A DNA stretch of 64,000 nt from Candidatus Velthaea sp. (lineage in GTDB: Bacteria; Vulcanimicrobiota; Vulcanimicrobiia; Vulcanimicrobiales; Vulcanimicrobiaceae). The notes beneath the pieces are model-generated. The model saw only the letters and a program-made list of their open reading frames with translations. It had not been told where the DNA came from and made no database searches. Both the position numbers and the translations under genes were made by a program. This document shows positions 5,334-48,352 of the stretch, piece after piece (positions within the stretch are counted from its first letter, which is position 1; every line of letters starts with the position of its first letter). The stretch spans positions 44,297 to 108,296 of the forward strand of contig JBEKHC010000004.1 of NCBI GenBank assembly GCA_050012475.1, read 5' to 3'.

Positions 5334-5743
5334 CCGTTGCGACGCCGCCGCAGATAGGTATCGAGGATCATCGCCGCGGCCAGCTTATCGACGACCGTGC
5401 GCCGCTTTTTGCGTGAGAAATCGGCGGCGATGAGCGATTTCTGCACCGCCGCCGTCGTCAGCCGCTCGTCGACCAGCTCGATCGCACCATCGAATGCGCG
5501 GGCCAGATGGGCGACGAAGGCGTCGACCGTTTTCGCCGATAGACCGCGCTCGCCCGCCAGCGTCAGCGGATCGCCGACGATGATGGTCCGCGCCGCGCGC
5601 TCGCGAGCGATCGCAACGATGCGCTCGACGTCGGCACGCACGTTGGTGCGTTCGATCGTGTCGAACGGCAGTGCCATCGTGCCGACGCTCACGGCCACGC
5701 CGATCCGTCGCTCGCCGACGTCGAGCGCGATGATGCTGTCCAT
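5330..5743 (-). CDS. ruvX: Holliday-junction-resolvase-like / pre-16S rRNA nuclease YqgF
   Basis: ALDVGERRIGVA, VDERLTT, VDKLAAAMIL; alternative TTG start at 5752 overlaps the recO stop. Confidence 0.95.
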   Translation of the reverse strand: MDSIIALDVGERRIGVAVSVGTMALPFDTIERTNVRADVERIVAIARERAARTIIVGDPLTLAGERGLSAKTVDAFVAHLARAFDGAIELVDERLTTAAVQKSLIAADFSRKKRRTVVDKLAAAMILDTYLRRRRNG

Positions 5744-5748
5744 CGCCG

Positions 5749-6492
5749 TCAAACCGGAAACGTGTCGAGCAGACCGCGCGATTTCGGCCGCTTGCCGAGA
5801 TGCCAATTCACGAGTTCATCGATCGCCCGCGCGGTGCGCGGCGTAGCGGTCGCCGCAGCGCGGATCGGACCGCCGCGCACTGCGCCGACGGCACGGAAGT
5901 TGGCGACGTCGTCCGGCCGCAGATGGTTGATGTCGCCTCGCCCCCCGCCGCAACGCTCGCACGTCAAGCCGCCCGCATCGACGTCGAGCCAGGCGCCGCG
6001 ATCGTTGAAAGGCGCACTGCACCGCACGCAAGCATCGTCGGGGGGCGCCAGACCCAGAGCGCCCAGTAACCGCAACTCGAAGCGCGGCACGAGCGAGGCC
6101 GGATCGGCGCTTGCCGCCAATGCCGGCGCCGCCGCGCTCAACAATGCGTACACGTCGGGCAGCGGCAGATCCAGCTCACAGAAGGCGTCGACCACTTCGG
6201 CCAGCAGCGAGGCGGCGGCGAACGTTGCGGGGTCGACGAGGCCTTGCCAATGGCTGCGCAACGTCTGCACCGAGGTGATCACGTCGAGGTTTCTCCCCCG
6301 ATGCAGCGTGACTCGAACCTCCGATAAGAACGCCAATTGCCCACCCACCGCGCTTCGCGGCCGGCGAACGCCTTTCCCGACGGCATCGAGCTTGCCGCGC
6401 CCGGTCGAAAACAAGGTGAAGATCCGATCGGCTTCGCCCAACTGGCGCGAGCGAAGCACCATCGCGTCCGTGGTATAGCTGCGCTCGGTCAG
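5749..6492 (-). CDS. recO: DNA repair protein RecO (start re-assigned to CTG 6492; first canonical ATG is 6462)
   Basis: VLRSRQLGEADRIFTLFS..GKL..KGVRRP, CxxC..CxxC zinc finger; SD GGAGG precedes a CTG overlapping the cdd stop. Confidence 0.93.
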   Translation of the reverse strand: MTERSYTTDAMVLRSRQLGEADRIFTLFSTGRGKLDAVGKGVRRPRSAVGGQLAFLSEVRVTLHRGRNLDVITSVQTLRSHWQGLVDPATFAAASLLAEVVDAFCELDLPLPDVYALLSAAAPALAASADPASLVPRFELRLLGALGLAPPDDACVRCSAPFNDRGAWLDVDAGGLTCERCGGGRGDINHLRPDDVANFRAVGAVRGGPIRAAATATPRTARAIDELVNWHLGKRPKSRGLLDTFPV

Positions 6493-6923
6493 CGCACTCC
6501 TCCGGACGGTTCCGGACCGGGGTGCGCCGATTCCAGATCGCCCGGGCTGAACGGTTCGGGCAACAAGGCCGACAGCAGCACCACCCGCAGCGAACCGTCA
6601 TCGTCGAAAATCACCTGCATGCCGGCGCCAAACTCGTGCAAGACCTGGCGGCACGCACCACAAGGCATCGTGCGCACGCCGCGCGGGCCCGCGACGGCGA
6701 TGGCCTCGAAGTATTGCACCCCTTCGCCCAGCGCACGATACACGGCGATGCGCTCAGCGCACATCGACAGCCCATAGGACGCATTTTCGACGTTTGCGCC
6801 GGTGAAGACTCGGCCATCCGCTCCAACGAGCGCTGCTCCGACGCGAAACTGCGAATACGGCGCGTAGGAACGCTCGCGCGCGGCGAGGGCGGCGGCGAGC
6901 AGCTCAGACGGTTCGAGCGGCAT
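6489..6923 (-). CDS. cdd: Cytidine deaminase
   Basis: YAPYSQFRVGAAL, GANVENASYGLSMCAER, PCGACRQ. Confidence 0.97.
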   Translation of the reverse strand: MPLEPSELLAAALAARERSYAPYSQFRVGAALVGADGRVFTGANVENASYGLSMCAERIAVYRALGEGVQYFEAIAVAGPRGVRTMPCGACRQVLHEFGAGMQVIFDDDGSLRVVLLSALLPEPFSPGDLESAHPGPEPSGGVR

Positions 6924-32408: not shown

Positions 32409-32526
32409 CACGGCGCAACCGCGCCCGGACGGGGCCATTTTTCGCAGCGGCGGTGAGGGATCGGCGGGAGTGAACGTTACCTCCGATGTTGTATTTTCTC
32501 CGGTCACCTCAATTCTAGGAGTCGAT

Positions 32527-33210
32527 TTGAACCTTCGCACGATGGCGTTTGCGGCGGTTGCCCTGACCGCCCTTGGCATGAGCGCCGTCTCGGTCGCGCA
32601 GACCGGGCCGGGGACGCCGCCCCCGCCGCCGGTGCCCGGCGCGACCTCGAGCCCGCTCGTCTCCAGCTCCGCCGTGCCCACGGCGCTGCCGTCGAGCGAG
32701 CCCGCGCCCGTCTCGCCCGTCATGACGCCGACGCCGCCGCCGGGGCCGCTGGCTTCACCGGGCGACCAGCCGTCCGAGTCGCCGTCGCCCGAAGGCCGCC
32801 GCCGCGGGCACCGGGGCGGCGGGGAGGCGGCTTCGCCCGGGCCCAGCCCGACCGATACGCCCGAACCGCCCCAGTTCTCGACCCTCGACGGCGTCTGGGA
32901 GGTCGCGCTCCAGCCGCTGAGCGGAGGCCGCGCCGTCTACTCACACCTGTACATCACCCAGGCGGGGAACACCATCACGGGCACCTGGCGGCGCGATTCG
33001 AAAACCGTGCTGCCGATTACGGGCACCTTCGACGGCCGGCTGTTCAAGATCACGGCCACGGACGGAACGGCGACCCAACTGCTCAGCGGTTACGAGGAGA
33101 ACTACAGCGACATGGTCGGCTTGATCACCGATGGCGACTCCGCGCATGCGGGAACTCCGTTCACCGCCGCCCACCGCAAACGCGAGCACGATAAGACCAT
33201 CGTCCGGTAG
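32527..33210 (+). CDS. Hypothetical secreted protein with Pro/Ser-rich linker and C-terminal beta domain
   Basis: SD AGGAG then TTG; signal peptide ..SVAQ; LDGVW..L.ITQ.G.TITGTW. Confidence 0.75.
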
Positions 33211-33216
33211 CAACCG

Positions 33217-34527
33217 ATGGCCAGCCAAGACAGAGCGTTCGGCTTTCGAACGCGCGCGCTGCACGCGGGGACGCCGCCCGATCCGCAAACCGGCGCGCGC
33301 GCCCAGCCGATCTATCTCTCAACGAGCTTCGTGTTCGACTCGACCGAACACGCCGCCGAACTGTTTGCGCTGCGCACGTACGGCAACATTTACTCGCGCA
33401 TCGGGAATCCGACCGTCGCCGCGTTCGAAGAAAAGATGGCCAGCCTCGAAGGCGGCTTGGGCGGCGTCGCGACGGCTTCGGGGCTGGCCGCGCAGCTGAC
33501 CGCGATCCTCGTGCTGGCGCAAGCCGGCGATCATCTCGTCGCGACGGCGAATTTGTACGGCGGCACGATCACCCAATTTTCGGTCACGCTCAAGCGAATG
33601 GGCATCGAGGTTTCGTTCGTCGCGCCGGGTGACCTCGACGCGCTCGCCGGCGCGATCGGGCCGAACACCAAGGCCGTGTACACCGAGACGATCGGCAACC
33701 CGGCCGGTAATGTGGCCGACCTCGAAGCGCTCGCAGCGCTCGCGCATGCCCACGGTCTACCGCTGCTCGTCGACAACACGTTCGCCTCGCCGTTTTTGTG
33801 CCGGCCGATCGAGTGGGGCGCCGACGTCGTCGTCAACTCCGCGACGAAATTCATCGGCGGTCACGGCACCGCCATCGGCGGGATCATCGTCGAATCGGGA
33901 ACCTTCCCGTGGGGCGCGGGAAAGCATCCGCTGCTCTCGACGCCCAGCCCCGGGTATCACGACATGAATTTCGCCGAAACGTTCGGCGAGTTCGCCTATC
34001 TGATGCGCGCGCGCGTCGAAATCTTGCGTGACGTCGGGGCGTGCCTTTCACCGATGAACGCGTTCTTGTTCATACAAGGCCTCGAAACGCTGCCGCTGCG
34101 CATGCCCGCGCACGTCCAAAACGCGCGCACCGTCGCCGAGTTTCTGCAGACGCGTGACGAAGTTGCCTGGGTGGCCTATGCCGGACTGCCCACGGATCCG
34201 TCGTATGCGTTGGCGCGCAAGTATCTGCCCGAGGGAGCCGGGTCGGTGTTCAGCTTCGGCTTGCGCGGCGGCCGCGAAGCGGGCAGCGTCTTCATCGAAT
34301 CACTCGAGTTGTGGTCGCACTTAGCCAACGTCGGCGACGCCAAGAGTTTGGTCATCCATCCCGCGTCGACCACGCATCAGCAGCTCTCCGACGCCGAGAT
34401 GAGCGCGTCGGGCGTGCGCCCGGAGATGATTCGCGTTTCGGTCGGACTCGAAGACGCGGCCGACTTGATTTGGGATCTCGACCGTGCGCTGCAGCGCGCG
34501 GCAGCCGCCGTGAAGGTTCGTGCGTGA
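33217..34527 (+). CDS. metY: O-acetylhomoserine/O-acetylserine sulfhydrylase (MetY/CysD type)
   Basis: F.TRALHAG, GNIYSRIGNPT, NLYGGT, DNTFA, NSATKFIGGHG, HLANVGDAKSLVIHPASTTHQQL. Confidence 0.93.
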   Translation: MASQDRAFGFRTRALHAGTPPDPQTGARAQPIYLSTSFVFDSTEHAAELFALRTYGNIYSRIGNPTVAAFEEKMASLEGGLGGVATASGLAAQLTAILVLAQAGDHLVATANLYGGTITQFSVTLKRMGIEVSFVAPGDLDALAGAIGPNTKAVYTETIGNPAGNVADLEALAALAHAHGLPLLVDNTFASPFLCRPIEWGADVVVNSATKFIGGHGTAIGGIIVESGTFPWGAGKHPLLSTPSPGYHDMNFAETFGEFAYLMRARVEILRDVGACLSPMNAFLFIQGLETLPLRMPAHVQNARTVAEFLQTRDEVAWVAYAGLPTDPSYALARKYLPEGAGSVFSFGLRGGREAGSVFIESLELWSHLANVGDAKSLVIHPASTTHQQLSDAEMSASGVRPEMIRVSVGLEDAADLIWDLDRALQRAAAAVKVRA

Positions 34528-35003
34528 TACTCACGACGGTTGCCGAACGCCGTTCGCTGCTCGCCCGCGCGACGACCGTGGCGCTCGTCGGCGCGTCGAA
34601 CAATCCGGTGCGGCCCAGCTATTTCGTCTTCAGCTATCTGCGCACGAAGGGCACGTTTCGAATCGCGCCGATCAATCCGACGATCGCTGCGATCGACGGC
34701 GTGCGCGCCTATCCGTCGCTGGCGGCCTACGCTGCCGAAAACGGACCGCCCGACATCGTCGACGTCTTCCGCAAGCCGGCCGAGGCGCTCGCGGTCGCGC
34801 GCGAAGCGATCGATGCCGGCGCCAAGGCGATCTGGTTTCAATACGGCGTCATCAACGATGCTGCGATCGCGCTGGCCGATCGTGCCGGTCTCGACGTCGT
34901 CGTCGACCGCTGCATCAAAGTCGAATCGGCGCGCTTCGACGGCGGGTTGGCGATCGGCGGACTCAATAGCGGTCTGATCACCTCGCGTCGCCGTCCGGGC
35001 TGA
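34524..35003 (+). CDS. CoA-binding protein (YccU-like)
   Basis: VALVGASNNP.RPSY.V..YL, PINP, DIVDVFR, AKAIWFQ.G, VV.DRC.KVE; GTGA overlap with metY. Confidence 0.92.
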   Translation: MILTTVAERRSLLARATTVALVGASNNPVRPSYFVFSYLRTKGTFRIAPINPTIAAIDGVRAYPSLAAYAAENGPPDIVDVFRKPAEALAVAREAIDAGAKAIWFQYGVINDAAIALADRAGLDVVVDRCIKVESARFDGGLAIGGLNSGLITSRRRPG

Positions 35004-36088
35004 TGGAGCGCGCGGAAGCGGCCGCGCTCGACGCACGCATCCTGGCGGCGATCGCGGCGTATGCGCTCGATGCGCGCGCATTCGATGAACTCGCGTGCGA
35101 TATCTTTGCCTACCAACTGCGCTGGAATGCGCCCTATGCGGCCTTCGCGCATAGCCGCGGGATATCGCTGCAGCGCCTGCCGCGAACGGCCGCCGAGATT
35201 CCCGCCGTTCCAGCCGCGGCGTTCAAAGAAGCCGTGCTGAGCACCGTCGAGCCCGCCGCAGCAGCGCTGTGGTTCGAGACCAGCGGGACGACCGCGGCCC
35301 ATGCCGGACGGCACTATTTGGCGACCCCGGCACTTTACGAGGCTGCGCTCATCGCCGGTTTCGACCGGGCGATGCTCGCCGACGGCGCGCGTTTACGGTA
35401 CCTGCTGCTCGTGCCCGACGCGCGCCGCGCGCCGCATTCGTCGCTGGGCTTCATGCTCGACCGCATCGCGGCGGCACGCGGCGACGGGCGCGACGGGCGC
35501 TTCGTCGACGGCGACCGCTTCGACGCCGCCGGATTCGTGCGCGCGCTCGAGGGCGCGGTCGCCGACGACGTTCCGGTGTGCATCGCAACGACCGCCTTTG
35601 CGCTCGTTGCCGCGCTGGTCGAACTCGACGCGCGCGGCCGGCGGTTCGTGCTGCCGCGGGGCTCGCGCATGATGGAAACGGGCGGCTTCAAAGGCCGTGC
35701 CCGCGTCGTCGAGCGCGCCGAACTGTACGCCGCGGCCAGCGAGCGCTTCGGACTGCCGGTCGAGGCGATCGTCGCCGAATACGGCATGACCGAACTCTCC
35801 AGTCAGTATTACGATTCGCTCGAAAGCCGCAGCGGGCCGCAACGTTATAAAGCCGGGCCGCCGTGGCTGCGGCCGCTCGTCGTCGATCCGCACGGCGCCC
35901 CGGTCGCGCCCGGCATCGTCGGCGCGATCCGTCACATCGACTGCGCCAACCGCTCTTCGGTCGTCGCGATCGACACGGAAGATCTAGGCGCGCTCACCCC
36001 GTCCGGACTCGTGCTGCTGGGGCGCGAACGCGGCGCCGAGCTGCGCGGCTGTTCGCTCGATGCCGAAGACCTCGCTGCGCGCGCTTAG
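35003..36088 (+). CDS. LuxE-like acyl-protein synthetase
   Basis: IPAVP..AFK, FETSGTT, ETGGFKG, EYGMTELSSQ.Y, PPW, D.AN..S...I.TEDLG, LLGR...AELRGCS (C-terminal acyl-acceptor Cys). Confidence 0.88.
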   Translation: MERAEAAALDARILAAIAAYALDARAFDELACDIFAYQLRWNAPYAAFAHSRGISLQRLPRTAAEIPAVPAAAFKEAVLSTVEPAAAALWFETSGTTAAHAGRHYLATPALYEAALIAGFDRAMLADGARLRYLLLVPDARRAPHSSLGFMLDRIAAARGDGRDGRFVDGDRFDAAGFVRALEGAVADDVPVCIATTAFALVAALVELDARGRRFVLPRGSRMMETGGFKGRARVVERAELYAAASERFGLPVEAIVAEYGMTELSSQYYDSLESRSGPQRYKAGPPWLRPLVVDPHGAPVAPGIVGAIRHIDCANRSSVVAIDTEDLGALTPSGLVLLGRERGAELRGCSLDAEDLAARA

Positions 36089-37292
36089 CGCCGTCGCGAT
36101 CGTCGCCGCGGTTGCCGCCGCCGCCGAACGCTGGAGCAACGCCGACTTCCCGCCGCGCGTGCGCGCAACGGCGGCGATCGAAGCGCGCCTGGGATACAGC
36201 ACGCCGGTCGTCGAGTACGCCCTCGACCGGCTCTTCTTCTCGCTGCGGACCGACGCGCTCGCAGCGGCGATCGCGCACGAACTAGGAACGCTCGCCGCGC
36301 TCGACGGCCCTGTCGAACGCGCCGGCCGTCCGGCGGGGTACGCGCGCGGCGTCGACCGCGTGGTCGTCGTGGCCAGCGATACGACGATCGGCGTTGCGCT
36401 GCTGCCCGCCGTGTACGCGCTGGCCGCAAAATGCACGGTGGTGGTCAAGGATCGCAGCGACGCGCTGGTGAGCGCGTTCTTCGCTTCGCTGGTCGAAGAA
36501 CGGCCCGAGTTCGCGGCCGCGGCGACAGCCCAAAGCTGGACCGGCGGCGACGATCCGCGCGAAGTCGAGCTGCTGGGCGCCGCCGACGTCGTCGTGGCCT
36601 TCGGCAGCGACGCGGCGCTGCGCGCGATCCGTTCGCACGTGCGGCCGGACGCGCGGTTCGTCGGGTTCGGCCACCGCGCAAGCATCGGCTACATCGATGC
36701 CGAGCGCATCCCCGCGCGTTCGCGCGAAACGCTGCTCGAGGGCATCGCCGCCGATGCGTTGCTGTACGACGGCGACGGCTGTCTTTCGCTCCACGCGCTG
36801 TTCGTCGGCGGCGAAGCCGCGGCAAGCGCGGCTTTGGCCGTCGAACTCGCCGCCGCGTTCGAGCGCGTTTCCGTCGAATTTCCCGCCGGGAGCAGCGACC
36901 CGCAACGCGCGGCAGCGGCAGCCGCGTACCGCAACCTGAGCGCGTTTCGCGCAGCCGGCGGACACGGCGCGGTCTACGCTCCGGCCCACGAAAGCGCGAC
37001 GATCGCCTTCGACCCGCCGCGCGACGAACCGCCGCCGTTCTTGCCGCGCGTGCTGCCGGTTTTCCCCGTCCGCGAACCGGCCGAGGCCGTCGAGTATATC
37101 CGCCGGCACCGTTTGCCGGTCGAGGCGTTGGGCGTCAGCGACCCCAACACACCCGAAGCGCTGACGCTGGCCGTCGCGATCGGCGCCGTTCGGGTGGCGC
37201 GGCTGGGCGAGATGCAGGCGCCGCCGGCCGGCGGCCATCACGGCGGCGCACCGCGCATCGCCGACTTCGTGCGCTGGATCGATCGCGATTGA
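36060..37292 (+). CDS. LuxC-like acyl-CoA/acyl-protein reductase (ALDH fold)
   Basis: W.GGD, ADVVVAFGSDAA..AIR, FVGFGHRASIG, DALLYDGDGCLS (catalytic Cys), R...LG.MQ.PP...HHGG. Confidence 0.85.
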   Translation: MPKTSLRALSAVAIVAAVAAAAERWSNADFPPRVRATAAIEARLGYSTPVVEYALDRLFFSLRTDALAAAIAHELGTLAALDGPVERAGRPAGYARGVDRVVVVASDTTIGVALLPAVYALAAKCTVVVKDRSDALVSAFFASLVEERPEFAAAATAQSWTGGDDPREVELLGAADVVVAFGSDAALRAIRSHVRPDARFVGFGHRASIGYIDAERIPARSRETLLEGIAADALLYDGDGCLSLHALFVGGEAAASAALAVELAAAFERVSVEFPAGSSDPQRAAAAAAYRNLSAFRAAGGHGAVYAPAHESATIAFDPPRDEPPPFLPRVLPVFPVREPAEAVEYIRRHRLPVEALGVSDPNTPEALTLAVAIGAVRVARLGEMQAPPAGGHHGGAPRIADFVRWIDRD

Positions 37293-38599
37293 GCGCCGCT
37301 GAGCAACGCTTCGAGCGCATCGTCACTGCCGTTCCGGGTCCGCGCTCGCAGGCGTTGCGCGCCCGGCTCGCGCGCTTCGAGCCCCCGGGCGTCACCTATC
37401 TGGGCGACGCCTATCCGGTGTTTTGGACGAGCGCGGACGGCGCGCTCGTCTGCGACGTCGACGGCAACCGCTACCTCGATCTCACCGCGGCATTCGGCGT
37501 GGCGAACGTGGGACACACCAACGCTCGGGTCGCCGCCGCGATCGGCGCACAAGCGCAGCAACTCATTCATGCTATGGGCGACGTCCATCCCAGCGACGTG
37601 AAAACGCTGCTGCTCGAACGGCTGGCCGAACTCGCGCCCGGCGATTTGCAAAAGACGTACCTCACGACCGGCGGCGCGGAAGCAATCGAGTTCGCCCTCA
37701 AAACGGCGCTGCTCGCCACCGGAAAATCGCGCTTCATCGCGTACCGCGGCGCGTATCACGGCCTGTCGCTGGGCGCGCTCGAAGTCGCCGGCATCCCGAA
37801 GTTCCGCACGCCGTTCGCGAGCTTGATCGGCGACCGTACAACTTGGCTGCGCTTCCCCGAGACGGCAGCCGACCTGGACGGCGCACTAACCGCAGCACGA
37901 ACGACGCTCGAAAACGATCCGCAAACCGCCGCGATCGTCGTCGAGCCGATCCAAGGCCGCGGCGGAGTGATCGTTCCGCCGTGCGGTTTCCTCGCCGGGT
38001 TGCGCAGCCTGTGCGATGCTCGCGGCGTCTTGCTGGTGTTCGACGAGATTTATACCGGCTTCGGCCGCACCGGAACGATGTTCGCCTGCGAACGCGAAGG
38101 CGTGGTCCCCGACTTGCTCTGCATGGGCAAAGCCTTGGCCGGCGGCGTTCCGCTTGCGGCCACCATCGGCCGCGCGGCGGTGATGGATGCGTGGCCCAAA
38201 AGCACCGGCGAAGCGCTGCACACGGCTACCTTCGCCGGCAATCCCCTTGCCTGTGCTGCCGCACTCGCAACCATCGACGAACTCGTTCGGCTCGACCTCG
38301 TCGCTCGCGTCCGGGCGCGCGCCGCGGCGTTCGCGCAGCGTCTGCAGCACTTCTTGAGTCATCATCCCGGCGTTGTAGCCGTTCGCGGCACCGGCTATCT
38401 GCACGCCGTAGAGTTCGCAACGCCCGGCATCGCGAACAAGATCGTCGTCGAGGCACTCGCACGAGGAGTCATCGTTTTGCAATCCGGCCCAACCGGCACG
38501 TCGATCACGTTCGCACCGCCGTTGGTCATCGGCGACGATCAGCTCGCGCGCGCACTCGACATCGTCGAATCGTGCGTACCGAGCGGAGGTTCGGCATGA
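37289..38599 (+). CDS. Class III PLP-dependent aminotransferase (omega-transaminase)
   Basis: DVDGNRYLD, GAEAIE.ALK, GAYHG, VEPIQGRGG, FDEIYTGFGRTG, PDLLCMGKALAGG, TFAGNPLAC; TTGA overlap with the LuxC-like gene. Confidence 0.94.
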   Translation: MSAAEQRFERIVTAVPGPRSQALRARLARFEPPGVTYLGDAYPVFWTSADGALVCDVDGNRYLDLTAAFGVANVGHTNARVAAAIGAQAQQLIHAMGDVHPSDVKTLLLERLAELAPGDLQKTYLTTGGAEAIEFALKTALLATGKSRFIAYRGAYHGLSLGALEVAGIPKFRTPFASLIGDRTTWLRFPETAADLDGALTAARTTLENDPQTAAIVVEPIQGRGGVIVPPCGFLAGLRSLCDARGVLLVFDEIYTGFGRTGTMFACEREGVVPDLLCMGKALAGGVPLAATIGRAAVMDAWPKSTGEALHTATFAGNPLACAAALATIDELVRLDLVARVRARAAAFAQRLQHFLSHHPGVVAVRGTGYLHAVEFATPGIANKIVVEALARGVIVLQSGPTGTSITFAPPLVIGDDQLARALDIVESCVPSGGSA

Positions 38600-39648
38600 C
38601 CTATAAAGTCGGCATCGTCGGCAGCGGGTTCGGCGGCAGCGTTCACGCCCCGGCCTTCAACCTGCACCCGGCATTCGAGGTCGTTGCCCTAGCCTCGCCG
38701 GCCAACGCCGAACGGGTCGCCCGCGAACGCAACATTCGCCACGCGTTCACTTCGCTGGATGCCTTACTGCGCGAAGTCAAAGTCGACGTCGTCGCGGTCG
38801 CTTCGCCGCCGTACGACCACCATGGATCGGTGCTGCGCGCGCTGGCTGCCGGCAAACACGTGCTGTGCGAGAAACCGTTTACCCTCAACGTCGCTCAAGC
38901 CGAAGAACTCGTCGCCGCTGCGCAGCGCGCCGGAACGGCTTGCGCGCTGGCTCACGAGTTTCGCTACGCGCCTGCGGAAACAACGCTCAAGGCGCTCATC
39001 GCCGACGCAAAGATCCGCGCCATCCGGCAGATCGAGATCACCCGCTTCGGCAACGAACTGCGCGCCGACGCGCAACGCCCGCGCTCGACGTGGTGGTTCT
39101 CGCGCGAACGCGGCGGCGGCGTAGCGAACTCGGTGATGCCGCACCTCGTGGATCTCGCGAACTGGTACGCCGGACGCGCTCCGGCACGCGTCGTCGGCTA
39201 CGGACGCACCGTTCACCCGCTGCGGAACGACGAAGCGGGCGAGTTCTCCAGCGACGTCTTCGACGGCGCGTTCGCCCTGCTCGAGTACGGCTCGCGCCTA
39301 ACCGCGCGCATCACCAACGACAGCACGACGAGCATGAATCAGTGCACGCTCGCGCTCCACGCCGAAGACATCAGCGTCGTCGCCAACGGGGAGGGGCTCA
39401 TCGACATGCGCCTGTTCTCCGTCGAACCCGACGAACAAAGCGAGTTCGAGCTTTCGCCCTCACCGTATGCAAAATACGCGTCGGTCGGGCCCAACATCCC
39501 GCCGTTTCTTTCGCTGCTCGACGACTTCGCCCAACGCATTACCGACGGCGGCGGCACTGCCCCAACGTTCGCCGAAGCCCTCGCAACCCAGCGCGTCCTC
39601 GCCGCGATCGGCTACGAAGTCCCCGCCTTCGAACTCCGCGACCGCTGA
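38596..39648 (+). CDS. Gfo/Idh/MocA family NAD(P)-dependent oxidoreductase
   Basis: KVGIVGSGFG, VDVVAVASP, AGKHVLCEKP, HEFRY, GGG.....HLVDL; ATGA overlap. Confidence 0.93.
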   Translation: MTYKVGIVGSGFGGSVHAPAFNLHPAFEVVALASPANAERVARERNIRHAFTSLDALLREVKVDVVAVASPPYDHHGSVLRALAAGKHVLCEKPFTLNVAQAEELVAAAQRAGTACALAHEFRYAPAETTLKALIADAKIRAIRQIEITRFGNELRADAQRPRSTWWFSRERGGGVANSVMPHLVDLANWYAGRAPARVVGYGRTVHPLRNDEAGEFSSDVFDGAFALLEYGSRLTARITNDSTTSMNQCTLALHAEDISVVANGEGLIDMRLFSVEPDEQSEFELSPSPYAKYASVGPNIPPFLSLLDDFAQRITDGGGTAPTFAEALATQRVLAAIGYEVPAFELRDR

Positions 39649-40530: not shown

Positions 40531-42780
40531 TTACGGCAAGTAGAACCCGGCACTCACCGCGTGCAGTGTGATCGTACCGATCGAGCAAGCCGACGTCGAC
40601 GAACACGTCGCCGCGGCAACGCCGATCTGGTCGCCCGCATCGACGGCACCGTCGCCGTTCGCGTCGTACCAAACCGCGACGCGATACGCGCCGGTCGACG
40701 CCGGAACGTCGCCGATCTCGAACGTACCGTCCGCATTGACCGGAACGCCGGCCGGGAAGCTGGCATCGAGGAACTTGGGCCGGTTGGTGTTGCCGGTCGC
40801 GTAGGCGAACGCGACGAGCTGCGCGGTTCCCGCTTTTTGCGCGCTCGGCCCGCTGTACGCCGCCGTGTCGCGGATGAGCGACGCCAGCGCGCGATAGGCG
40901 TTGAGGCGGCCGTGACCTTGATGCGAACTGTTGATGTTGTCGGCGGTGCTCTCGATGGCGTACTTCACTTGCGCGGGCGTCAGGCGTCCGTGACCGCCCG
41001 CTTCGGCGATGAGCATCGCCGCGGTTGCCGAAACTTGCGGCGTTGCTTGCGAGGTGCCCTCGAAGGCATACACGCAGCTCGTCGCCGGACTCTGCGTCGC
41101 GCATTGGACCGATGAATCGCTGGTCGGATAGGCCGTCGACGTGTAGTAGTTCACGATCCAGTGCAGCACGTCGTTGTCGTTGCACGACGAATCGTTGCAG
41201 GCGGCGTCGCCGCCGGGTGCCACCACGCTCAGGCTCGGCGAATACTGCGAATACGACGTCACTTCTTCGGTCGAGGTCGCGTACGTGCCGTCGCTGGACT
41301 GCTGCTGGCCGTAGTATTGATCTTTGAGTCCGGTCGCGCCGACGGAGATCACGCCGGGATAGGCGGCGGGATAGTCGAGCGTGCCGGCAACTTCGCCGTT
41401 GTCGCTGTTTCCGGCGGCAGCCACCACCGTGACGCCCGCCGCAATCGCGCTTTCGATTGCATTGAACTCGATCGTGTCGAATGATGGCGAACCGATGCTC
41501 ATGCTGATGACGTCGGCGCCGTTAGCGACGGCGTCCGCGACGGCTTGGGCCTCGTCGGGAGTCGTCGCCCCGATGCTGCCGTTCGCGTTGTTGCAGTAGG
41601 CGTTTTGAGCGGGGAAGATTTTGAACGCCATGAGCTTGGCGCCCCAAGCCGCGCCGGCAAATCCGACGCTGTCGGCTTTGGCGATGGCGATGCCGGCGAC
41701 GTTGGTTCCGTGACCGTTATCGTCTTGAACGGCCGCGAGCGTGGTCGTCACCTGCGGTGTCGCGTTGGCCAGCGGGTCGCAGGTCGACGAAGACGAGGTG
41801 TTGTCGATCGGCGTGACCGCGGATTCTTGGAAAATCAACTGATCGGTGAGGTCGGTGTTGTTGCCGTCGATGCCGGTGTCGATGATCGCAAGTTTCGCAT
41901 TGGTTCCGGTGTTGTACGACCACGCGTAGTTGGTGCCGGTCGCCAAGGTGTACCACTGGAAACCGAAATCCGGGTCCGCAACGGTGGTCGGTTTGCGCGA
42001 CAGGAGCCGGCGGCGATGAACCGGCGTGACTTCGGCAACTTCGGGCTGGGCTTGCAGCTGACGCGTGAATGCGGCGGCATCGATGCCGTGCGGAACGCTG
42101 ACCACGCGGAGCCGGTCGGCCGACGCCGATAGTGTCTCGCGCCCCACGCTGCCCACCGCGCGTTCGACGTCGGCCGGCGAACGGCCCGAGGTGCGCAGCG
42201 CGGCGGCACTCATGCGGACCGCCAAGCGCGTCGGGTCGACATCAAACGCTGACGCGGTCCGGCTCGCGAGCCCCCGATGCTTGACGGTCGACAGCATGCT
42301 CCGCATGCTGACGGACGAGCTGCGGCGGATCGATTGCAGACTCGAAACCGCGACCGTGCCCTTCGCAGCCGACGCCGCGTTGTAGTAGACCGTGTGCGGA
42401 CCGTCATAAACCTGGACGATGGGGACCGTGTACCCCGAGGGCGAGAACACGATCGCCAGCGGGCTGCCGGACGACGCCGGGGTGACCGTCGCGGGCGTCG
42501 TGTAGGACGCGCCGCCGACGGTGAAGGCGATGCCGCTCGGATTGGAGGTTACGGCATACGAGCTGGGGTTGTTGCCGTCGTTGACGAAACCGCCCGCGCC
42601 GCCCCCGCTGCTCTGCTGGCCAGGGACGACCAGCGTCCCCGGTGCCGGCGTCGCGGTCGCGACATTCACGACGGGTGTGGTCGAACTGCTTCCGCCGCCA
42701 CCTCCTGCGCATGCACTGAGAAAAGCAAGCATGACAAAGCCGGCGCACACGCGTGCGGCGGAGGGGAAGCGATGTTGCAT
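40531..42780 (-). CDS. S8 (subtilisin-like) serine peptidase lipoprotein
   Basis: Lipobox LSAC; IIDTG, DNGHGT.VAG, VAAAGN, YPAAY, GTSQATP catalytic triad motifs. Confidence 0.94.
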   Translation of the reverse strand: MQHRFPSAARVCAGFVMLAFLSACAGGGGGSSSTTPVVNVATATPAPGTLVVPGQQSSGGGAGGFVNDGNNPSSYAVTSNPSGIAFTVGGASYTTPATVTPASSGSPLAIVFSPSGYTVPIVQVYDGPHTVYYNAASAAKGTVAVSSLQSIRRSSSVSMRSMLSTVKHRGLASRTASAFDVDPTRLAVRMSAAALRTSGRSPADVERAVGSVGRETLSASADRLRVVSVPHGIDAAAFTRQLQAQPEVAEVTPVHRRRLLSRKPTTVADPDFGFQWYTLATGTNYAWSYNTGTNAKLAIIDTGIDGNNTDLTDQLIFQESAVTPIDNTSSSSTCDPLANATPQVTTTLAAVQDDNGHGTNVAGIAIAKADSVGFAGAAWGAKLMAFKIFPAQNAYCNNANGSIGATTPDEAQAVADAVANGADVISMSIGSPSFDTIEFNAIESAIAAGVTVVAAAGNSDNGEVAGTLDYPAAYPGVISVGATGLKDQYYGQQQSSDGTYATSTEEVTSYSQYSPSLSVVAPGGDAACNDSSCNDNDVLHWIVNYYTSTAYPTSDSSVQCATQSPATSCVYAFEGTSQATPQVSATAAMLIAEAGGHGRLTPAQVKYAIESTADNINSSHQGHGRLNAYRALASLIRDTAAYSGPSAQKAGTAQLVAFAYATGNTNRPKFLDASFPAGVPVNADGTFEIGDVPASTGAYRVAVWYDANGDGAVDAGDQIGVAAATCSSTSACSIGTITLHAVSAGFYLP

Positions 42781-42784
42781 GGTG

Positions 42785-44059
42785 TTAGCGAACGACTCCT
42801 ACGGCGGGGCTCGTCGATTCCAAGCGGCGCCAGATCAGATTCAATGCGGCCGTCGCCGCTCTCGTTCGTATATCGGCACGGGTTCCGGGAAAATTGATCT
42901 TGACCGCCTGGGCATCCCCGTCAGGCCCGGCGTAGCCGAACCAGACCAAGCCGACCGGCTTCTCGGGCGTTCCGCCGTCCGGCCCGGCGACGCCCGTGGT
43001 CGATATCGCGATGTCGACGCCGAGCCGCTCCCGCGCGCCGCGCGCCATCGCGAGCGCGGTCGCTTCGCTGACCGCACCCTCGGCGGCCAGTGTGGCGGGC
43101 GGAACGCCGAGCAGCGCGGTCTTGACGTCGTTGGCATAGGCCACGATCGAACCGCGAAAGGTCTGCGAAACACCCGCGACGCTCACGAGCGCGTCGGCGA
43201 TCGCGCCGCCGGTACACGACTCGGCCGTGCCGATCGTCAGCTCGCGGCGCACCAGTTCACCCACGATCGCGCTTTCGAGCGACGTGTCGTCGTCGCCGAA
43301 GTACCCGCTGCCGATCCGGCTGCGCAGCTTCGCGGCCAGCGGTGCGAGCAGTGCCTCGGCGCTCGCAGCGTCGGCAGCTTTGGCCATCAGCTTGACGTCG
43401 ACCCGGCCGGCGTGAGCGAGCAGCGCGATCTTGGGGTTTTCCAGCGTCCGAAAGAGGTCTTCTATGCGCCGATCGAGCTCGGATTCCGGAATGCCCACGG
43501 TGTGCAGCGTGCGAGTAAAGATCGCCGAACGGACGTCGAAGCGTTGCGTCAGCCAGGGAATGAGCCGCTCGGTCAACATCGGCATCATCTCGCGCGGCAC
43601 GCCCGGCATCGAGGCGACGAACTTGCCGTCGGCGCGCAGGGCGACGAAGCCCGGCGCGGTGCCGTGGGGGTTGTCGAGCACGGTGCTGCCCGCGGGCAGC
43701 ATCGCCTGCCGCGTGTTGTTCGCGCTCATCGTGCGGCCCATCGCCGCGAAGCGCGCTTCGATCGCCCGCAGCGACGGTTCGTGCAGCTCCAGCGGACGGC
43801 CGACGACGCGGCCCACAGCGTCCTTGGTGAGATCGTCGACGGTCGGCCCCAGGCCGCCGGTGGTGATGACGCCGTCGGCCCGGCCCAGCGCGCCTTCGAG
43901 CATGACGGCCAGGCGATCCGTGTTGTCGCCGACGGAGTGCTTGGCGAAGACGTCGATGCCGGCCTCGGCGAGCCGCTGCGCGATGAACGCGGCGTTTGTA
44001 TCGACGAGGTGGCCAAGCAGAATTTCGGTCCCGATCGTGACGATCTCGACGGATGCCAT
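42785..44059 (-). CDS. cinA: Competence/damage-inducible protein CinA (MoCF-like + NMN deamidase PncC)
   Basis: IGTEILLG..DTN, VGDN, TGGLGPT.DDLT, GTAPG, PGVP.EM, AESCTGG, GAVS, TG.AGP.GGT.EKPVG.V. Confidence 0.96.
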   Translation of the reverse strand: MASVEIVTIGTEILLGHLVDTNAAFIAQRLAEAGIDVFAKHSVGDNTDRLAVMLEGALGRADGVITTGGLGPTVDDLTKDAVGRVVGRPLELHEPSLRAIEARFAAMGRTMSANNTRQAMLPAGSTVLDNPHGTAPGFVALRADGKFVASMPGVPREMMPMLTERLIPWLTQRFDVRSAIFTRTLHTVGIPESELDRRIEDLFRTLENPKIALLAHAGRVDVKLMAKAADAASAEALLAPLAAKLRSRIGSGYFGDDDTSLESAIVGELVRRELTIGTAESCTGGAIADALVSVAGVSQTFRGSIVAYANDVKTALLGVPPATLAAEGAVSEATALAMARGARERLGVDIAISTTGVAGPDGGTPEKPVGLVWFGYAGPDGDAQAVKINFPGTRADIRTRAATAALNLIWRRLESTSPAVGVVR

Positions 44060-44212
44060 CGTGCCTCCATCCCGCGCCGACCGCCGCGGCCCCTCCACCC
44101 TGCGTGGAGCCGTGCGAGCCCGTCCGTGCGCGACGTCACGGGATGACTCCGCGGCGCACGTTAGCATAAGGTGCGGTTTGTCGCCTCCGCTACGCTTGCA
44201 CGAATCCTTTTA

Positions 44213-44221
44213 TGGTATAAA
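44213..44221 (+). promoter_or_regulatory. Extended -10 promoter TGgTATAAA, 7 nt before an ATG (probable leaderless transcript)
   Basis: TTTTATGGTATAAACCGACATATG. Confidence 0.6.
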
Positions 44222-44228
44222 CCGACAT

Positions 44229-44459
44229 ATGATGAACACGCTCAAGAGCCGTCTGCTCAACGTTGGCCTCGTTGCCTCAGCTGCTGTGCTTTTGCCGACG
44301 GCCGTCTTCGCGCAAGACGTCGCGCCGTATTCGGAAAATGCATCGAACGTGATCGGTGCGCTGGTTGTGTGGCTGCTGCCCATCGGCGGAGCTTTCGCGG
44401 TCGGCGTCATGTTCGCGTCCGACAAGAGCGCGCAGCAGAATCGAATCAGCCGCCGCTAA
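44229..44459 (+). CDS. Small (76 aa) protein with signal peptide and one TM helix
   Basis: MMNTLKSRLLNVGLVASAAVLLPTAVFA/QD..VIGALVVWLLPIGGAFAVGVMFA; lies directly behind a promoter. Confidence 0.7.
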   Translation: MMNTLKSRLLNVGLVASAAVLLPTAVFAQDVAPYSENASNVIGALVVWLLPIGGAFAVGVMFASDKSAQQNRISRR

Positions 44460-44537
44460 CATCCAAGCCGCGGAGCCAGGGTTCGCCGCGCGGCGGTCGG
44501 GCAGATCACCGGCCGCGCGCGATTCCAGGTAATCGCG

Positions 44538-45173
44538 CTACCGTTCATCGACGATGCACGGACCGAAGGGTTCGGCCCCGTCGAACCATGCCGGATACGT
44601 CACGCGAATCTCGACGTCAAACCCGTCGGCCGCGCTGCGCATCATTGAACGCCGCTCTTGTGAGTCGGCGTTGTTTGCTCTGGCCCGCCGGCGCTGTTGG
44701 GCCAGACATTCGAGAAAGCGCGCGAACCGCTCGTTCAGCGCGCTTTGCAATTTCGCCCGCAGGATCGCCGCGACGCGCGGCGCCGCACCGCCGGTCGAGA
44801 TCGCGATCCGCGCCCGGCCCGCGCTGGCCACGGCGGTCATCGCTACGAAGCCGTACGCGGGCTGATCGATCGCGCAAAACAGAAACCGCCGGTCGTCGGC
44901 CAACCGCCGCAAGCGCGCGGCGAGCGCCTCGTCCTGGGTCGTCAAAATGACGAAGTAGGCATCGCTCAGATCCTCGTCGCGCAGGTCGGCGCCGCTTTGC
45001 AGCCACGCGACCTCGGCGCCGGCGGCGCGCAGCGCGGCATCCTTTTCGATCGCCTCGCGATCGTCGCCGGCGCCGATCAGGACGCACTTGCGTCCAACGA
45101 GATTGAGTCCGACGGGAAAGAACGCGGGCGGTAGAATCTCGGGCCATTCGAGCGGCGACGGGCGGCTCGGCAT
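44538..45173 (-). CDS. Precorrin-2 dehydrogenase/sirohydrochlorin ferrochelatase-like (CysG N-terminal/SirC)
   Basis: FFPVGLNL.G.KCVLIG, DL.DA..VI, AIDQP..F, IAISTGG.AP.VA..LR. Confidence 0.85.
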   Translation of the reverse strand: MPSRPSPLEWPEILPPAFFPVGLNLVGRKCVLIGAGDDREAIEKDAALRAAGAEVAWLQSGADLRDEDLSDAYFVILTTQDEALAARLRRLADDRRFLFCAIDQPAYGFVAMTAVASAGRARIAISTGGAAPRVAAILRAKLQSALNERFARFLECLAQQRRRARANNADSQERRSMMRSAADGFDVEIRVTYPAWFDGAEPFGPCIVDER

Positions 45174-45174
45174 T

Positions 45175-46038
45175 TCAGTAATCCACGGGACGCAAATAAA
45201 ACTCGTTGATCGCCGTCCCCGAAACGAGCGCCGTCGTCGGCAGATGGCGTTTCCAGTGCGTGCTGTCGACCCGCCGCCGAACCAAAGCCACTTCTTCCGC
45301 GGTGAACCCGCGCGCGACGATGGTCGCGTCGCGGTACCCGACCAAGATCAGGCTCAAGATCTGGTCGGCTTTCGCGTACGTGATGCCCAGATCCGACTCA
45401 TCGGTTTGATTCAATTCGAGATCGGCGCTGGGCGCTTTGTCGATCACGCGCACGGGAACGTTGAGATAGCGCGCCAGCGCCCAGACCTGCGTTTTGAACA
45501 GGTCGCCGATCGGATTGACCGGCGGCGTGTCGTCGGCGTGCCAAGTGAAATAGCCCATCAGACGTTCGGTCTTGTTTCCGGTCCCGATCGGCAGCGCGCC
45601 CAGCCGCGCCGATTGATCGAACAGCGTGAGCATACGCATCCGGGCCATGACGTTGCCCTTGCGCCGCGCGTCGGCGTCGGGCGCCTGCCGCAGGTAGCCG
45701 TCGACCGCGTCGCTGATCTCGAGCGTTTGCGCGTTGATGCCGAGTTCGTCGATCACCAATTGCGCGTCGTGCAGGCTGTCCGCGCTCGACGTCCGATAGG
45801 GCATGCGAATCGCGTGGACGTTATGCGGTCCCAGCGCGCGTGCGCACAAGTAGGCGACGACCGCCGAGTCGATTCCGCCGCTGAGGCCCAGCACCGCGCG
45901 GCCGATCTTCCGCCGCACGAGCAGTTCGTCGTGCAGAAACGCCTCCAACCATTTCGCCGTCATCGCCGGGTCGATCGCCAGCGCCGCCAGCGGCTCGGCC
46001 GGACGCGCCGTGATCACCGGCAGCCGCGCGGCCGTCAT
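45175..46038 (-). CDS. nadE: NAD+ synthetase, synthetase subunit
   Basis: GLSGGIDSAV, GN.MAR.RM..LFD, GTGNKTE..MGYFT..D, PIGDLFKTQV, KAPSADL..QTDE.DLG. Confidence 0.96.
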   Translation of the reverse strand: MTAARLPVITARPAEPLAALAIDPAMTAKWLEAFLHDELLVRRKIGRAVLGLSGGIDSAVVAYLCARALGPHNVHAIRMPYRTSSADSLHDAQLVIDELGINAQTLEISDAVDGYLRQAPDADARRKGNVMARMRMLTLFDQSARLGALPIGTGNKTERLMGYFTWHADDTPPVNPIGDLFKTQVWALARYLNVPVRVIDKAPSADLELNQTDESDLGITYAKADQILSLILVGYRDATIVARGFTAEEVALVRRRVDSTHWKRHLPTTALVSGTAINEFYLRPVDY

Positions 46039-46952
46039 CGCAACCCGCGTTCGGGAAGCGGGATTTCCGCGTCGAGCCACAGATCGGGAAGGACCGCAGC
46101 CAGATCGCCCAACAGCGGCAGCGTCGCCCGCGCAACCTCGAATTCCGCGGGGTCGAGGTCGGCCCGCAGAATGCAGGCTTCGAGCGCGGGCGCCTCGACC
46201 ACGAACGTCCCGGCCGGGGAGATGATGCACGACGAGCCGGCCATGCCTTTCCCCCCTTCGAATCCGGTGAGCCCCGAATAGATGACGTACACACCGTGTT
46301 CGGACGCGTGGGCGCGCAGGATCGCTTTCCAGCGCGCGATGCTCTCGAGTTCGCCGTTGCCCGATAGCCCGCGGCCCGGCGATGCGCTGGGAACGAACAG
46401 CACGTGCGCGCCCTTGAGCGCGGCGATGGTCGGCATGATGCTGTGCCACGCATCTTCGCAGATCAGAATCGCCGCCGGACCGAACGCCGAGGGGAACACC
46501 TGCAGCCGGCGTCCGCGCGAATGAAAGCGCTCCTCGTCGAACACGCCGTAGGTCGGCAAGAACATCTTGCGGTGCACGTGCACGATGATGGGATCCGCCG
46601 CGCTCAAGCGGACGTACATCGCACTGTTGTAGAACGTCCCGCCGTCGTTCTCGAAGAAACCGCACACGACGTCGACCTCCGGTGCCTGCGGGCCGGCGGC
46701 GGTTCGCCACGCATCGCTGAGGACGCGCGCGAAAGCGTCCGCACTCAACGCCAGTTCGTACACCGCGCCTTCGAGAAAATAGCCGGTCAAACACGCCTCG
46801 GGCAGCACGATCAAGCGCGGTGCGCCGGCAGCGTGCAGCTGGGCGAAGATTGCCTGCAGCGCCGCGGTGTTGGCGGCCACGTCGCCCTTGACCGGCTTGA
46901 ACTGCACGACCGCGACCGGAGTCGGCGGCGGAGCCGGAGCGTCGTGCTTCAA
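46035..46952 (-). CDS. Nitrilase-superfamily C-N hydrolase; probable glutaminase subunit of NAD synthetase
   Basis: VLPE..LTGY, HRKMFLPTYGVFDEERF, ICEDAWH, SASP (E-K-C triad); ATGA-coupled to nadE. Confidence 0.9.
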   Translation of the reverse strand: MKHDAPAPPPTPVAVVQFKPVKGDVAANTAALQAIFAQLHAAGAPRLIVLPEACLTGYFLEGAVYELALSADAFARVLSDAWRTAAGPQAPEVDVVCGFFENDGGTFYNSAMYVRLSAADPIIVHVHRKMFLPTYGVFDEERFHSRGRRLQVFPSAFGPAAILICEDAWHSIMPTIAALKGAHVLFVPSASPGRGLSGNGELESIARWKAILRAHASEHGVYVIYSGLTGFEGGKGMAGSSCIISPAGTFVVEAPALEACILRADLDPAEFEVARATLPLLGDLAAVLPDLWLDAEIPLPERGLR

Positions 46953-48352
46953 TGCGCGACGGCGAGCGCCGACGCCGCACCGACCGTCTCGGCCAGTTCC
47001 TCGGCTGGGTAGGTGAGGATCTCGGCCATTGTCGGATGCAAATGCGGAATCTTCAGATAGTCGAACACGGTCGCGTTGAATGCCATCGCGGCGAGCGGGA
47101 TGTGGATGAGATCCGAAGCGTGCGCGCCGAGGATGGCGACACCCAGAATCTTGCCGTCCAGCGGCGCCGCGAGCATCTTGACGAACCCTTTGGTCTTACC
47201 GATCGAGATCGCTTTGCCTAAATCGCTGAACGGATACGATGCCTTGACGTATGCGACGCCCGTCGCGAGCAGCTCTTTCTCGCTCTCGCCGGCGACGGCG
47301 ACTTGGGGATCCGAGAACACCGTGTGGGCTTTGGAGAGCGAATAGTCGATCCGCTCGTCGGCAGCGCGGATCGCGTTGCGGGCCGCAACCTCGCCTTGCT
47401 GAATCGCCACGTGCACGAGCAAGAATTGGCCGGTCACGTCGCCGACCGCGAAGATGTTGCGGTTCGAGGTGCGCATCGTCTGATCGACCTCGATGCCGCG
47501 AATGACATGCGCCCGCACCCCAGCCTTCTCCAGCCCCAACCCGGCGATGTTCGGCACCCGCCCCAACGCATAGAAAATCTCTTCGGCCGCGACTTCCGCC
47601 TCGCGCCCGTCGCGCACGTAATGCACCACTTTGGCGCCGTCGGCGCGCACGCTCACGCGCTGCACCTGGGCGCGCGTTTCGATCGTCATCCCGTCTTCGC
47701 GCAGGTACTCGGTGAGCGCTTCGCCGATGTCGGTATCTTCGCCCGACAGCAGCTGCGTGCCGCGGATGACGACCGTCACCGCGGTCCCGGTGCGCGAGAA
47801 AAATTGGCCGAGTTCGGTCGAAACGTAACCGCCGCCCAGCACGATCATCGATTTGGGCGGCGCTGCGAGTTCGAGCGCGGCGTCGCTGTCGATGAAGCCC
47901 GCCGCGGCCAAGCCCGGAATGACCGGCGGCGCGACCACCGAGCCGGTGCCGATGACGAACGCGCCGCCGCGCAGGACCACGTCGCCCACCCGCAGCGTGT
48001 CGGGCGATTCGAACGTCGCCTCGCCGCGAAAGATGGGAAACGTTTCGAGCGCCGCGTTGCGATAATCGGTGAAGCCGCCGATGATCTCTTTTTTGCGCGC
48101 CATCACGAACGGAAAATCGACTGCGGCGCGGCTCGCGCGAATCCCTAATTCGTGCGCATGATCGATCTCGTACGCCGCATCGCTGGTCGCGATCAGCGTT
48201 TTCGACGGCATGCAGCCGCGCAGAATGCACAAGCCGCCCAGCGGTCCGCGATCGACGAGCGCGACCGTCGCGCCTAACTCACGGGCGGTGCGCGCCGCGG
48301 CGTAGCCGCCGGAACCGGCGCCGACGACGATGAGATCGAAAGAAGTTTGCAT
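46949..48352 (-). CDS. Class I pyridine nucleotide-disulfide oxidoreductase (dihydrolipoamide dehydrogenase-like)
   Basis: GAGSGG, GGLCILRGCMPSK, GGGYV..E, FAVGDV, HPTMAE. Confidence 0.92.
   Translation of the reverse strand: MQTSFDLIVVGAGSGGYAAARTARELGATVALVDRGPLGGLCILRGCMPSKTLIATSDAAYEIDHAHELGIRASRAAVDFPFVMARKKEIIGGFTDYRNAALETFPIFRGEATFESPDTLRVGDVVLRGGAFVIGTGSVVAPPVIPGLAAAGFIDSDAALELAAPPKSMIVLGGGYVSTELGQFFSRTGTAVTVVIRGTQLLSGEDTDIGEALTEYLREDGMTIETRAQVQRVSVRADGAKVVHYVRDGREAEVAAEEIFYALGRVPNIAGLGLEKAGVRAHVIRGIEVDQTMRTSNRNIFAVGDVTGQFLLVHVAIQQGEVAARNAIRAADERIDYSLSKAHTVFSDPQVAVAGESEKELLATGVAYVKASYPFSDLGKAISIGKTKGFVKMLAAPLDGKILGVAILGAHASDLIHIPLAAMAFNATVFDYLKIPHLHPTMAEILTYPAEELAETVGAASALAVAH

Follow-up and report, generated by a model that had tools for sequence, protein, structure and literature searches.

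A 64,000-nucleotide stretch of a Candidatus Velthaea sp. genome (contig JBEKHC010000004.1, positions 44,297 to 108,296; hereafter the window) carries a run of six plus-strand genes that includes genes for a LuxE-like adenylating enzyme, a LuxC-like reductase and a class III aminotransferase (AT). Judging from gene content, linkage and distribution, it is likely that these three proteins, here called the triad, stand in for QueC and QueF in making queuosine and convert 7-carboxy-7-deazaguanine (CDG) to preQ1. A second, chemically different and preQ0-free route to preQ1 is likely to operate in Vulcanimicrobiota, WOR-3 and probably Verrucomicrobiota, Myxococcota, Gemmatimonadota and Acidobacteriota. 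The closest relatives are found in Vulcanimicrobiota/Eremiobacterota.

In the host genome (93.8% complete), neither QueC nor QueF was found. FolE2 was detected with a hidden Markov model (HMM), and FolE type IA was not found. The queD and queE genes are adjacent on another contig (C8); QueD scores above its cut-off, and QueE matches QueE models best but falls below their cut-offs. Tgt is above the TIGR00430 cut-off and includes DEC and GGLSVGE, i.e. it is of the Cys158/Val233 type (motif typing from PMC3660597) that uses preQ1. QueA, QueG and all four GUN tRNAs are also present, and 5/5 genomes tested retain both of these enzymes. Retention of a preQ1-type Tgt together with QueA and QueG indicates that preQ1 is called for. 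FolE2 and QueG had been missed by a regular-expression screen, and blanks from that screen were given no weight. On contig C8 (G000:C8:59480-61873, locus L141), queD-queE are followed without a break by a futalosine hydrolase-like gene and by what is probably another menaquinone gene.

The phylum sample comprised 151 genomes, 82 from the class of the host and 69 from outside it. QueD and QueE were each found in all 82 class genomes and the AT in 81, with a frameshifted copy in the remaining one (G127); QueF was found in 0/82 and QueC in 1/82, as a weak, divergent protein. This sole QueC-like protein (genome G063, L336:6455-7666, 403 aa) is below the QueC cut-off, resembles QatC in length and is encoded among unrelated genes. 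Among the canonical QueC motifs (PMC13329287), it has SGGLDS and VPMRN and lacks YxQxHxxE and YPDC. The AT is single-copy in 82/82 genomes, which fits a role in primary metabolism. One class genome (G128) is unpublished, and no conclusion rests on it. Outside the class, the AT was found in 0/69 genomes and QueC in 30/69; QueC is present in 17/17 genomes with a QueE match to the host protein and in 27/32 with a QueD match, and three exceptions that were inspected sit in unrelated clusters. Searches for known salvage transporters gave YhhQ in 0/5, QueT in 0/31 and PF12822 in 0/31 above the cut-off (four weak matches), though transporters of other kinds are possible. Single frameshifts, possibly assembly errors, interrupt the AT gene in L337 (G127) and queE in G036 and G107. 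A second hole, located after preQ0 and not filled by the triad, is seen outside the class, for example in family f13 (among others G010, G017, G023, G028 and G032), where QueC was found in 6/6 genomes and QueF in 1/6.

The pathway lacks a conversion of COOH to CH2NH2, and an adenylase, thioester reductase and transaminase acting in series bring about just this change, which counts in favour of the triad as the route from CDG to preQ1. An acid to aldehyde to amine logic had been proposed in a reading of the DNA without database searches (the sequence-only reading), and it is likely because the AT is conserved together with a LuxE/LuxC pair that has no luciferase. From the genes observed, their motifs (catalytic cysteines included), their linkage and their distribution, we infer the following scheme, in each of its catalytic steps as well as in its substrate, aldehyde and amino donor. 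FolE2, QueD and QueE, encoded elsewhere in the genome, would supply CDG. The LuxE-like protein would adenylate the CDG carboxylate with ATP and then hold the acyl group as a thioester on Cys350. After transfer to Cys241 of the LuxC-like protein, the acyl thioester would be reduced with NAD(P)H to 7-formyl-7-deazaguanine, and the AT, dependent on pyridoxal 5'-phosphate (PLP), would transaminate this aldehyde to preQ1 with no nitrile formed. Tgt, QueA and QueG would then take preQ1 to Q34.

All six open reading frames (ORFs) are as first described, with the overlapping stop/start junctions GTGA at 34524, TGATG at 35000-35005, a 29-nt luxE/luxC overlap at 36060-36088, TTGA at 37289 and ATGA at 38596. 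Synteny in close relatives was scored in 80 loci, with counts restricted to loci with room. In same-family loci, luxC follows luxE in 64/66, the AT gene is found in 56/58 and the Gfo/Idh/MocA (Gfo) oxidoreductase gene in 54/56; the CoA-binding gene lies upstream in 53/71 and metY in 44/71. Housekeeping and other neighbours are syntenic as well (prfA in 55/80, rpmE in 58/80, an upstream ORF in 73/80); hence same-family synteny alone shows little and was rejected as sole evidence. Beyond the family, 20 regions were fetched from more distant genomes. In the second family of the class (f3), luxE, luxC and the AT gene are adjacent in 7/7 regions, in another setting and without the Gfo gene, metY or the CoA-binding gene. 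One genome of the same order has the triad with a weak Gfo match, and in the 12 regions from other classes no AT gene was found beside the LuxC match. Furthermore, among the best 150 relatives of the AT there are AT-LuxE fusions (P0164 and P0170, with P0141 and P0243 recognised by motif) and a LuxC-AT fusion (P0125). The expectation that the luxE/luxC-AT linkage would be conserved in relatives was thereby borne out.

The same comparison reduced the set of genes that had been proposed to act together. More distant metagenome loci were collected using an AT motif that favours other lineages (at least 120 matches, of which 80 loci were fetched). The Gfo gene is beside the triad in 0/7 second-family loci and had no match beside the AT gene in the 80 distant loci, so a core role for it is not supported. 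Nor is the suggested connection with metY and the CoA-binding protein, as both are absent from the second-family loci and nearly absent from the 80 distant loci, where the CoA-binding gene had no match beside the AT gene; two further MetY paralogs at 55% identity are encoded in the host genome. By gene content and order, the functional unit is the luxE-luxC-AT triad, the only part that travels together across orders and phyla. In 9/9 genomes of family f3 (e.g. L338), queE-queD share contig and strand with the triad at a distance of 13-21 kb, which is conserved synteny and not an operon.

The AT shares fold and PLP lysine (codon 38129-38131) with GabT, PatA and ArgD but differs from them in motifs and branch. 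Its best PDB matches are 4ffc and 4uox (E ~1e-72), and it falls below every NCBIfam cut-off shown, the best score being 318 of 639 bits. Compared with GabT/PatA, it has EPIQGRGG (R for E), DEIYTG (Y for Q), Thr in place of Arg before PPL, and HAMGDVHP (HxMGDVHP) in place of HTCF. Alignment A1 holds 66 of the best 150 AT relatives, selected by subfamily motifs and length, and the invariance of the motifs in A1 is therefore partly due to selection. A quick tree of 56 rows separated 33 subfamily members, including the window AT, from 23 ordinary class III enzymes by a 95% branch. The host genome has six other class III AT matches; the five in the tree are all outside the subfamily. The AT is not an ordinary GabT, ArgD or PatA; the sequence-only reading had named an ordinary GABA/ornithine aminotransferase as an outcome that would refute its proposal. 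The lost Glu/Arg pair presumably corresponds to the positions that bind glutamate/2-oxoglutarate in ordinary class III enzymes, and the amino donor is probably other than that usual pair. The start codon is inferred to be TTG at 37289, as the next in-frame start (37355) would remove a conserved N-terminal stretch.

By cluster names, the AT subfamily is found in Myxococcales, Verrucomicrobia, WOR-3 and Gemmatimonadota, with one name in Pseudomonadales, and Atlas clusters add Acidobacteriota. No full AT-subfamily locus was found among 62 viral contig loci, a motif scan of viral contigs gave one partial gene, and there was no match on plasmids at E 1e-60. In the phylum of G153 (Hyphomicrobiales by title), the AT was found in 0/301 genomes in a search that had no positive control.

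In the other lineages, the AT gene is linked to queuosine genes directly. A queE gene lies beside the AT gene on the same strand in 37 of the 80 distant loci, and in 34 of the 53 loci with at least 300 nt upstream; the queE-AT gap ranges from -37 to 344 nt in 35 linked loci. In a control set of viral loci that carry class III ATs of the ordinary kind, queE is beside the AT gene in 0/61. Loci L219 and L243 (WOR-3/Hydrothermae by cluster names) have the gene order AT-luxE-luxC-queD-queE with genes overlapping or abutting, and L245 has queE, the AT gene and a luxE/luxC fusion. No queC or tgt match was found within the 80 distant loci. Mapping the queE label onto the AT tree requires three changes. 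Around these operons, a TauE/SafE-type membrane protein gene precedes the AT gene in WOR-3 (L243:10963-11721, L219:7973-8188), and a 691-aa cluster member may fuse both; in L245, a two-domain ThyX-like gene (5313-6875) follows on the same strand.

The LuxE-like protein retains TSGTT, YGMTE and RGCS (Cys350) and the LuxC-like protein DGDGCLS (Cys241), all as first read. The LuxE label stands in part: the best PDB sequence match is LuxE (7xc6_E, E 5e-9), and no Pfam LuxE match was obtained at E<=0.01, although most of the 120 LuxE-like homologs listed carry PF04443. The protein scores 28 bits against an NCBIfam LuxE cut-off of 550 (NF052244), well below it. The LuxC-like protein is also well below the corresponding LuxC cut-off (34 bits against 750, NF052251), is recognised by Pfam LuxC, matches 7xc6_A (E 2e-5) and was matched in 71/71 same-family genomes. 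Alignment A2 of the LuxE-like protein (50 rows) shows S94-G95, E259-Y260 and G349-C350 to be invariant; the LuxC-like alignment has 14 rows. The acyl acceptor of LuxE is the C-terminal Cys364 (PMC12041015), and the phmmer alignment of the LuxE-like protein to 7xc6_E ends at residue 331, leaving Cys350 uncovered. The motifs PHSSL-x-x-M and EYGMxELxSQxY separate triad-type LuxE from the other LuxE type of the phylum.

The predicted structure of the LuxE-like protein (predicted local distance difference test score, pLDDT, 90.5) has PaaK as its top Foldseek match. In a wide fold search, the model matched the ligase BT_0428 (Z 23.6), ClxA (23.0), a hydroxyisobutyryl-CoA ligase (22.8) and a PaaK-family ligase (22.7), and the phenazine protein 3hgu with Z 21.2, a root-mean-square deviation of 3.9, 307 aligned residues and 13% identity; the next match below this reached only 15.9. 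The entry 7XC6 was not among the matches listed in either fold search and may be present further down. The modelled fold fits an adenylase of small or aryl acids, though the fold itself shows no function.

That the locus is luciferase-free was upheld across the host genome, in which no LuxD (PF02273) was found and three luciferase-like genes are on other contigs, two for SfnG and one of MsnO8 type. With no luxD or luxAB found in the genome, a role in bioluminescence was rejected. A different system is found in other classes, where the two scanned LuxC matches out of the 12 are both LuxC-PaaK-like fusions of ~880 aa; a LuxE gene accompanies such a fusion in L123:7046-10752, L125:6888-11891 and L126:5753-10762. 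In L125 and L126, a 400-aa ORF without Pfam match precedes the pair, and in L125 (genome G035, QueC present, QueF not found) queE lies directly upstream in divergent orientation.

Features of the locus in the window, with proposed roles
Feature	Position	Strand	Basis
MetY, O-acetylhomoserine sulfhydrylase, 436 aa; bystander	33217..34527	+	above TIGR01326 cut-off
CoA-binding protein (PF13380), 159 aa; bystander	34524..35003	+	CoA_binding_2 E 1e-35
LuxE-like adenylating enzyme, 361 aa; core; proposed CDG adenylase/thioester carrier	35003..36088	+	7xc6_E E 5e-9
Cys350 codon of LuxE-like protein; proposed acyl acceptor	36050..36052	+	invariant in A2; role by analogy with LuxE Cys364
LuxC-like acyl-thioester reductase, 410 aa; core; proposed 7-formyl-7-deazaguanine release	36060..37292	+	PF05893 E 3.5e-42
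Cys241 codon of LuxC-like protein; proposed catalytic Cys	36780..36782	+	aligned with the DQQACFS Cys of 7xc6_A; in 14/14 rows
Class III PLP AT, distinct subfamily, 436 aa; core; proposed aldehyde to preQ1	37289..38599	+	PF00202, Aminotran_3 E 1e-99
Gfo/Idh/MocA oxidoreductase, 350 aa; family-level neighbour, non-core	38596..39648	+	GFO_IDH_MocA E 3e-28

No consensus promoter was found at the locus. Upstream (32470-33210, plus strand), a Pro-rich, secreted-looking ORF of 246 aa without Pfam or NCBIfam match has a C-terminal domain that is conserved in 73/80 related loci. Downstream, on the opposite strand (40531-48352), a subtilase gene and further genes are syntenic in many relatives and have no visible link to the triad; the genes after the subtilase are, as we would name them from sequence, cinA-, nadE-, nitrilase- and dihydrolipoamide-dehydrogenase-like.

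Several observations weigh against the triad as the route from CDG to preQ1. The 82 class genomes form one clade, and the presence/absence profile is therefore one event. In the host genome, the triad (contig C4) and queD-queE (C8) are unlinked. Across the loci and genomes compared, most QueE and several QueD matches are below NCBIfam equivalog cut-offs. A single branch, probably Verrucomicrobiota, accounts for most of the 37 queE-linked loci (8/11 of those placed in the tree), which leaves about three independent linkages. Among the distant loci, luxE is beside the AT gene in 4/80 and luxC in 5/80, and 19/53 loci with room are without queE. The distant phyla were covered as loci, so that luxE and luxC may lie elsewhere in these organisms and queC and queF may be kept. 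Rfam scans of the window and of 11 loci gave no riboswitch, that for preQ1 included. Outside the class, QueC is present in 30 genomes and a strong QueF in only 12; the hole is thus not unique to the class, and other undescribed routes may exist.

It is improbable that the triad belongs to 7-deazaguanine metabolism but acts on another intermediate (CPH4, or ribose- or tRNA-bound CDG) or forms an amine other than free preQ1. The queE/queD linkage fixes the pathway and not the substrate, an AT that has lost the customary Glu, Gln and Arg may have atypical chemistry, and other products are described as branching off at CDG (10.64898/2026.04.15.718813). Nevertheless, a preQ1-type Tgt with QueA and QueG in 5/5 genomes tested, and an AT kept in one copy throughout the class, argue for preQ1 itself.

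The products offered as examples in the sequence-only reading, a fatty amine or an amino-acid side chain converted in the manner of ArgBCD, possibly linked to sulfur amino acids through metY, are quite improbable, as are conversions of Lys or HemA/HemL type; the evidence points to CDG, which that reading did not consider. LuxE and LuxC reduce fatty acids and dodecylamine is a product of TabE/TabA (PMC12041015, 10.1101/2025.08.11.669332), the six genes are tightly coupled in the window, and ArgC was not found in 15/15 genomes of family f3. However, the triad also occurs without metY and the CoA-binding gene, the host has HemA, ArgC and six other class III AT matches, ArgC is found in 12/31 class genomes while the AT is in essentially all, and the predicted LuxE-like fold is nearest to the PaaK, ClxA and EhpF types, although fold shows no function. 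The clustering with queE/queD would also be left unexplained. Substitution for HemA/HemL was rejected because HemA is present in 4/4 triad genomes tested, and substitution for ArgBCD because ArgC occurs in the host genome and in 12 of the 31 class genomes. Within the family of the host, ArgC is patchy (10/14).

Least probable is import of preQ1 by a transporter still to be named, with queD/queE serving another purpose and the triad unrelated: many salvage transporters are unidentified (PMC11130926), a second role of QueE in cell division is reported (PMC11142719) and the triad and queD-queE are on separate contigs here, but import would make the AT-luxE-luxC-queD-queE and queE-AT operons of about three lineages a matter of chance, against 0/61 in the control, and related families without QueC are also without QueD (f19, 0/5; f6, QueD confined to the single genome that has QueC).

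Replacement of QueC and QueF by the triad is probably a real, undescribed variant of queuosine synthesis, each chemical step of which has precedent. Full-text literature searches, with supplements and most subscription papers outside their scope, found no description of a LuxE/LuxC/AT route to queuosine. The available text of a 2026 QueF review (PMC13740343), a 2026 QueC-family paper (PMC13329287), a 2026 deazapurine mining preprint (10.64898/2026.04.15.718813) and PMC11130926 presents the route as QueC or QueC-QueF, with no mention of such a bypass, and QueC and QueF are treated as obligatory for preQ1 (PMC11130926, PMC13740343). If correct, the bypass would close a clear-cut gap in the pathway throughout a class of bacteria abundant in soil and would change the list of queuosine-producing microbes, as organisms with the triad are now scored unable to make queuosine de novo. 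It would also give a function to a large unannotated AT subfamily and to orphan luxE/luxC genes, and would add a nucleobase to the fatty acids on which LuxE/LuxC chemistry acts.

Several known systems bear comparison with the triad. The LuxC-LuxE fatty acid reductase (7XC6; PF05893, PF04443) provides the best PDB sequence matches for both Lux-like proteins and shares their thioester cysteines; it proceeds by adenylation, thioester formation on a C-terminal Cys, transfer to the LuxC Cys and reduction to the aldehyde (PMC12041015). Unlike it, the window pair is far below the NCBIfam cut-offs, lacks luxAB/luxD and is coupled to an AT and, in other phyla, to queD/queE. In the tambjamine system, TabE (a LuxC-related reductase) with TabA (an omega-transaminase), and TamA/TamH, likewise lead from thioester to aldehyde to primary amine (10.1101/2025.08.11.669332), but the substrate is a C12 fatty acyl group bound to an acyl carrier protein, the setting is secondary metabolism, and there is neither a LuxE-like Cys carrier nor que genes.

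The match of the LuxE-like model to 3hgu, which we take to be EhpF, may reflect a likeness to EhpF/EhpG. EhpF/EhpG (phenazine) and GriC/GriD (grixazone) each combine a small adenylating enzyme with a reductase of aldehyde-dehydrogenase fold acting on a (hetero)aromatic acid, in secondary metabolism; to our knowledge, neither includes an aminotransferase step. Finally, canonical QueC and QueF, placed between QueE and Tgt (PMC11130926, PMC13329287, PMC13740343), would share with the triad the CDG substrate, the preQ1 product and this position in the pathway. The folds are unrelated, and the proposed aldehyde and PLP chemistry of the triad differs from a route through the amide ADG and the nitrile preQ0, such that nitrogen would come from an amino donor in the triad route and comes from ammonia in that of QueC and QueF.

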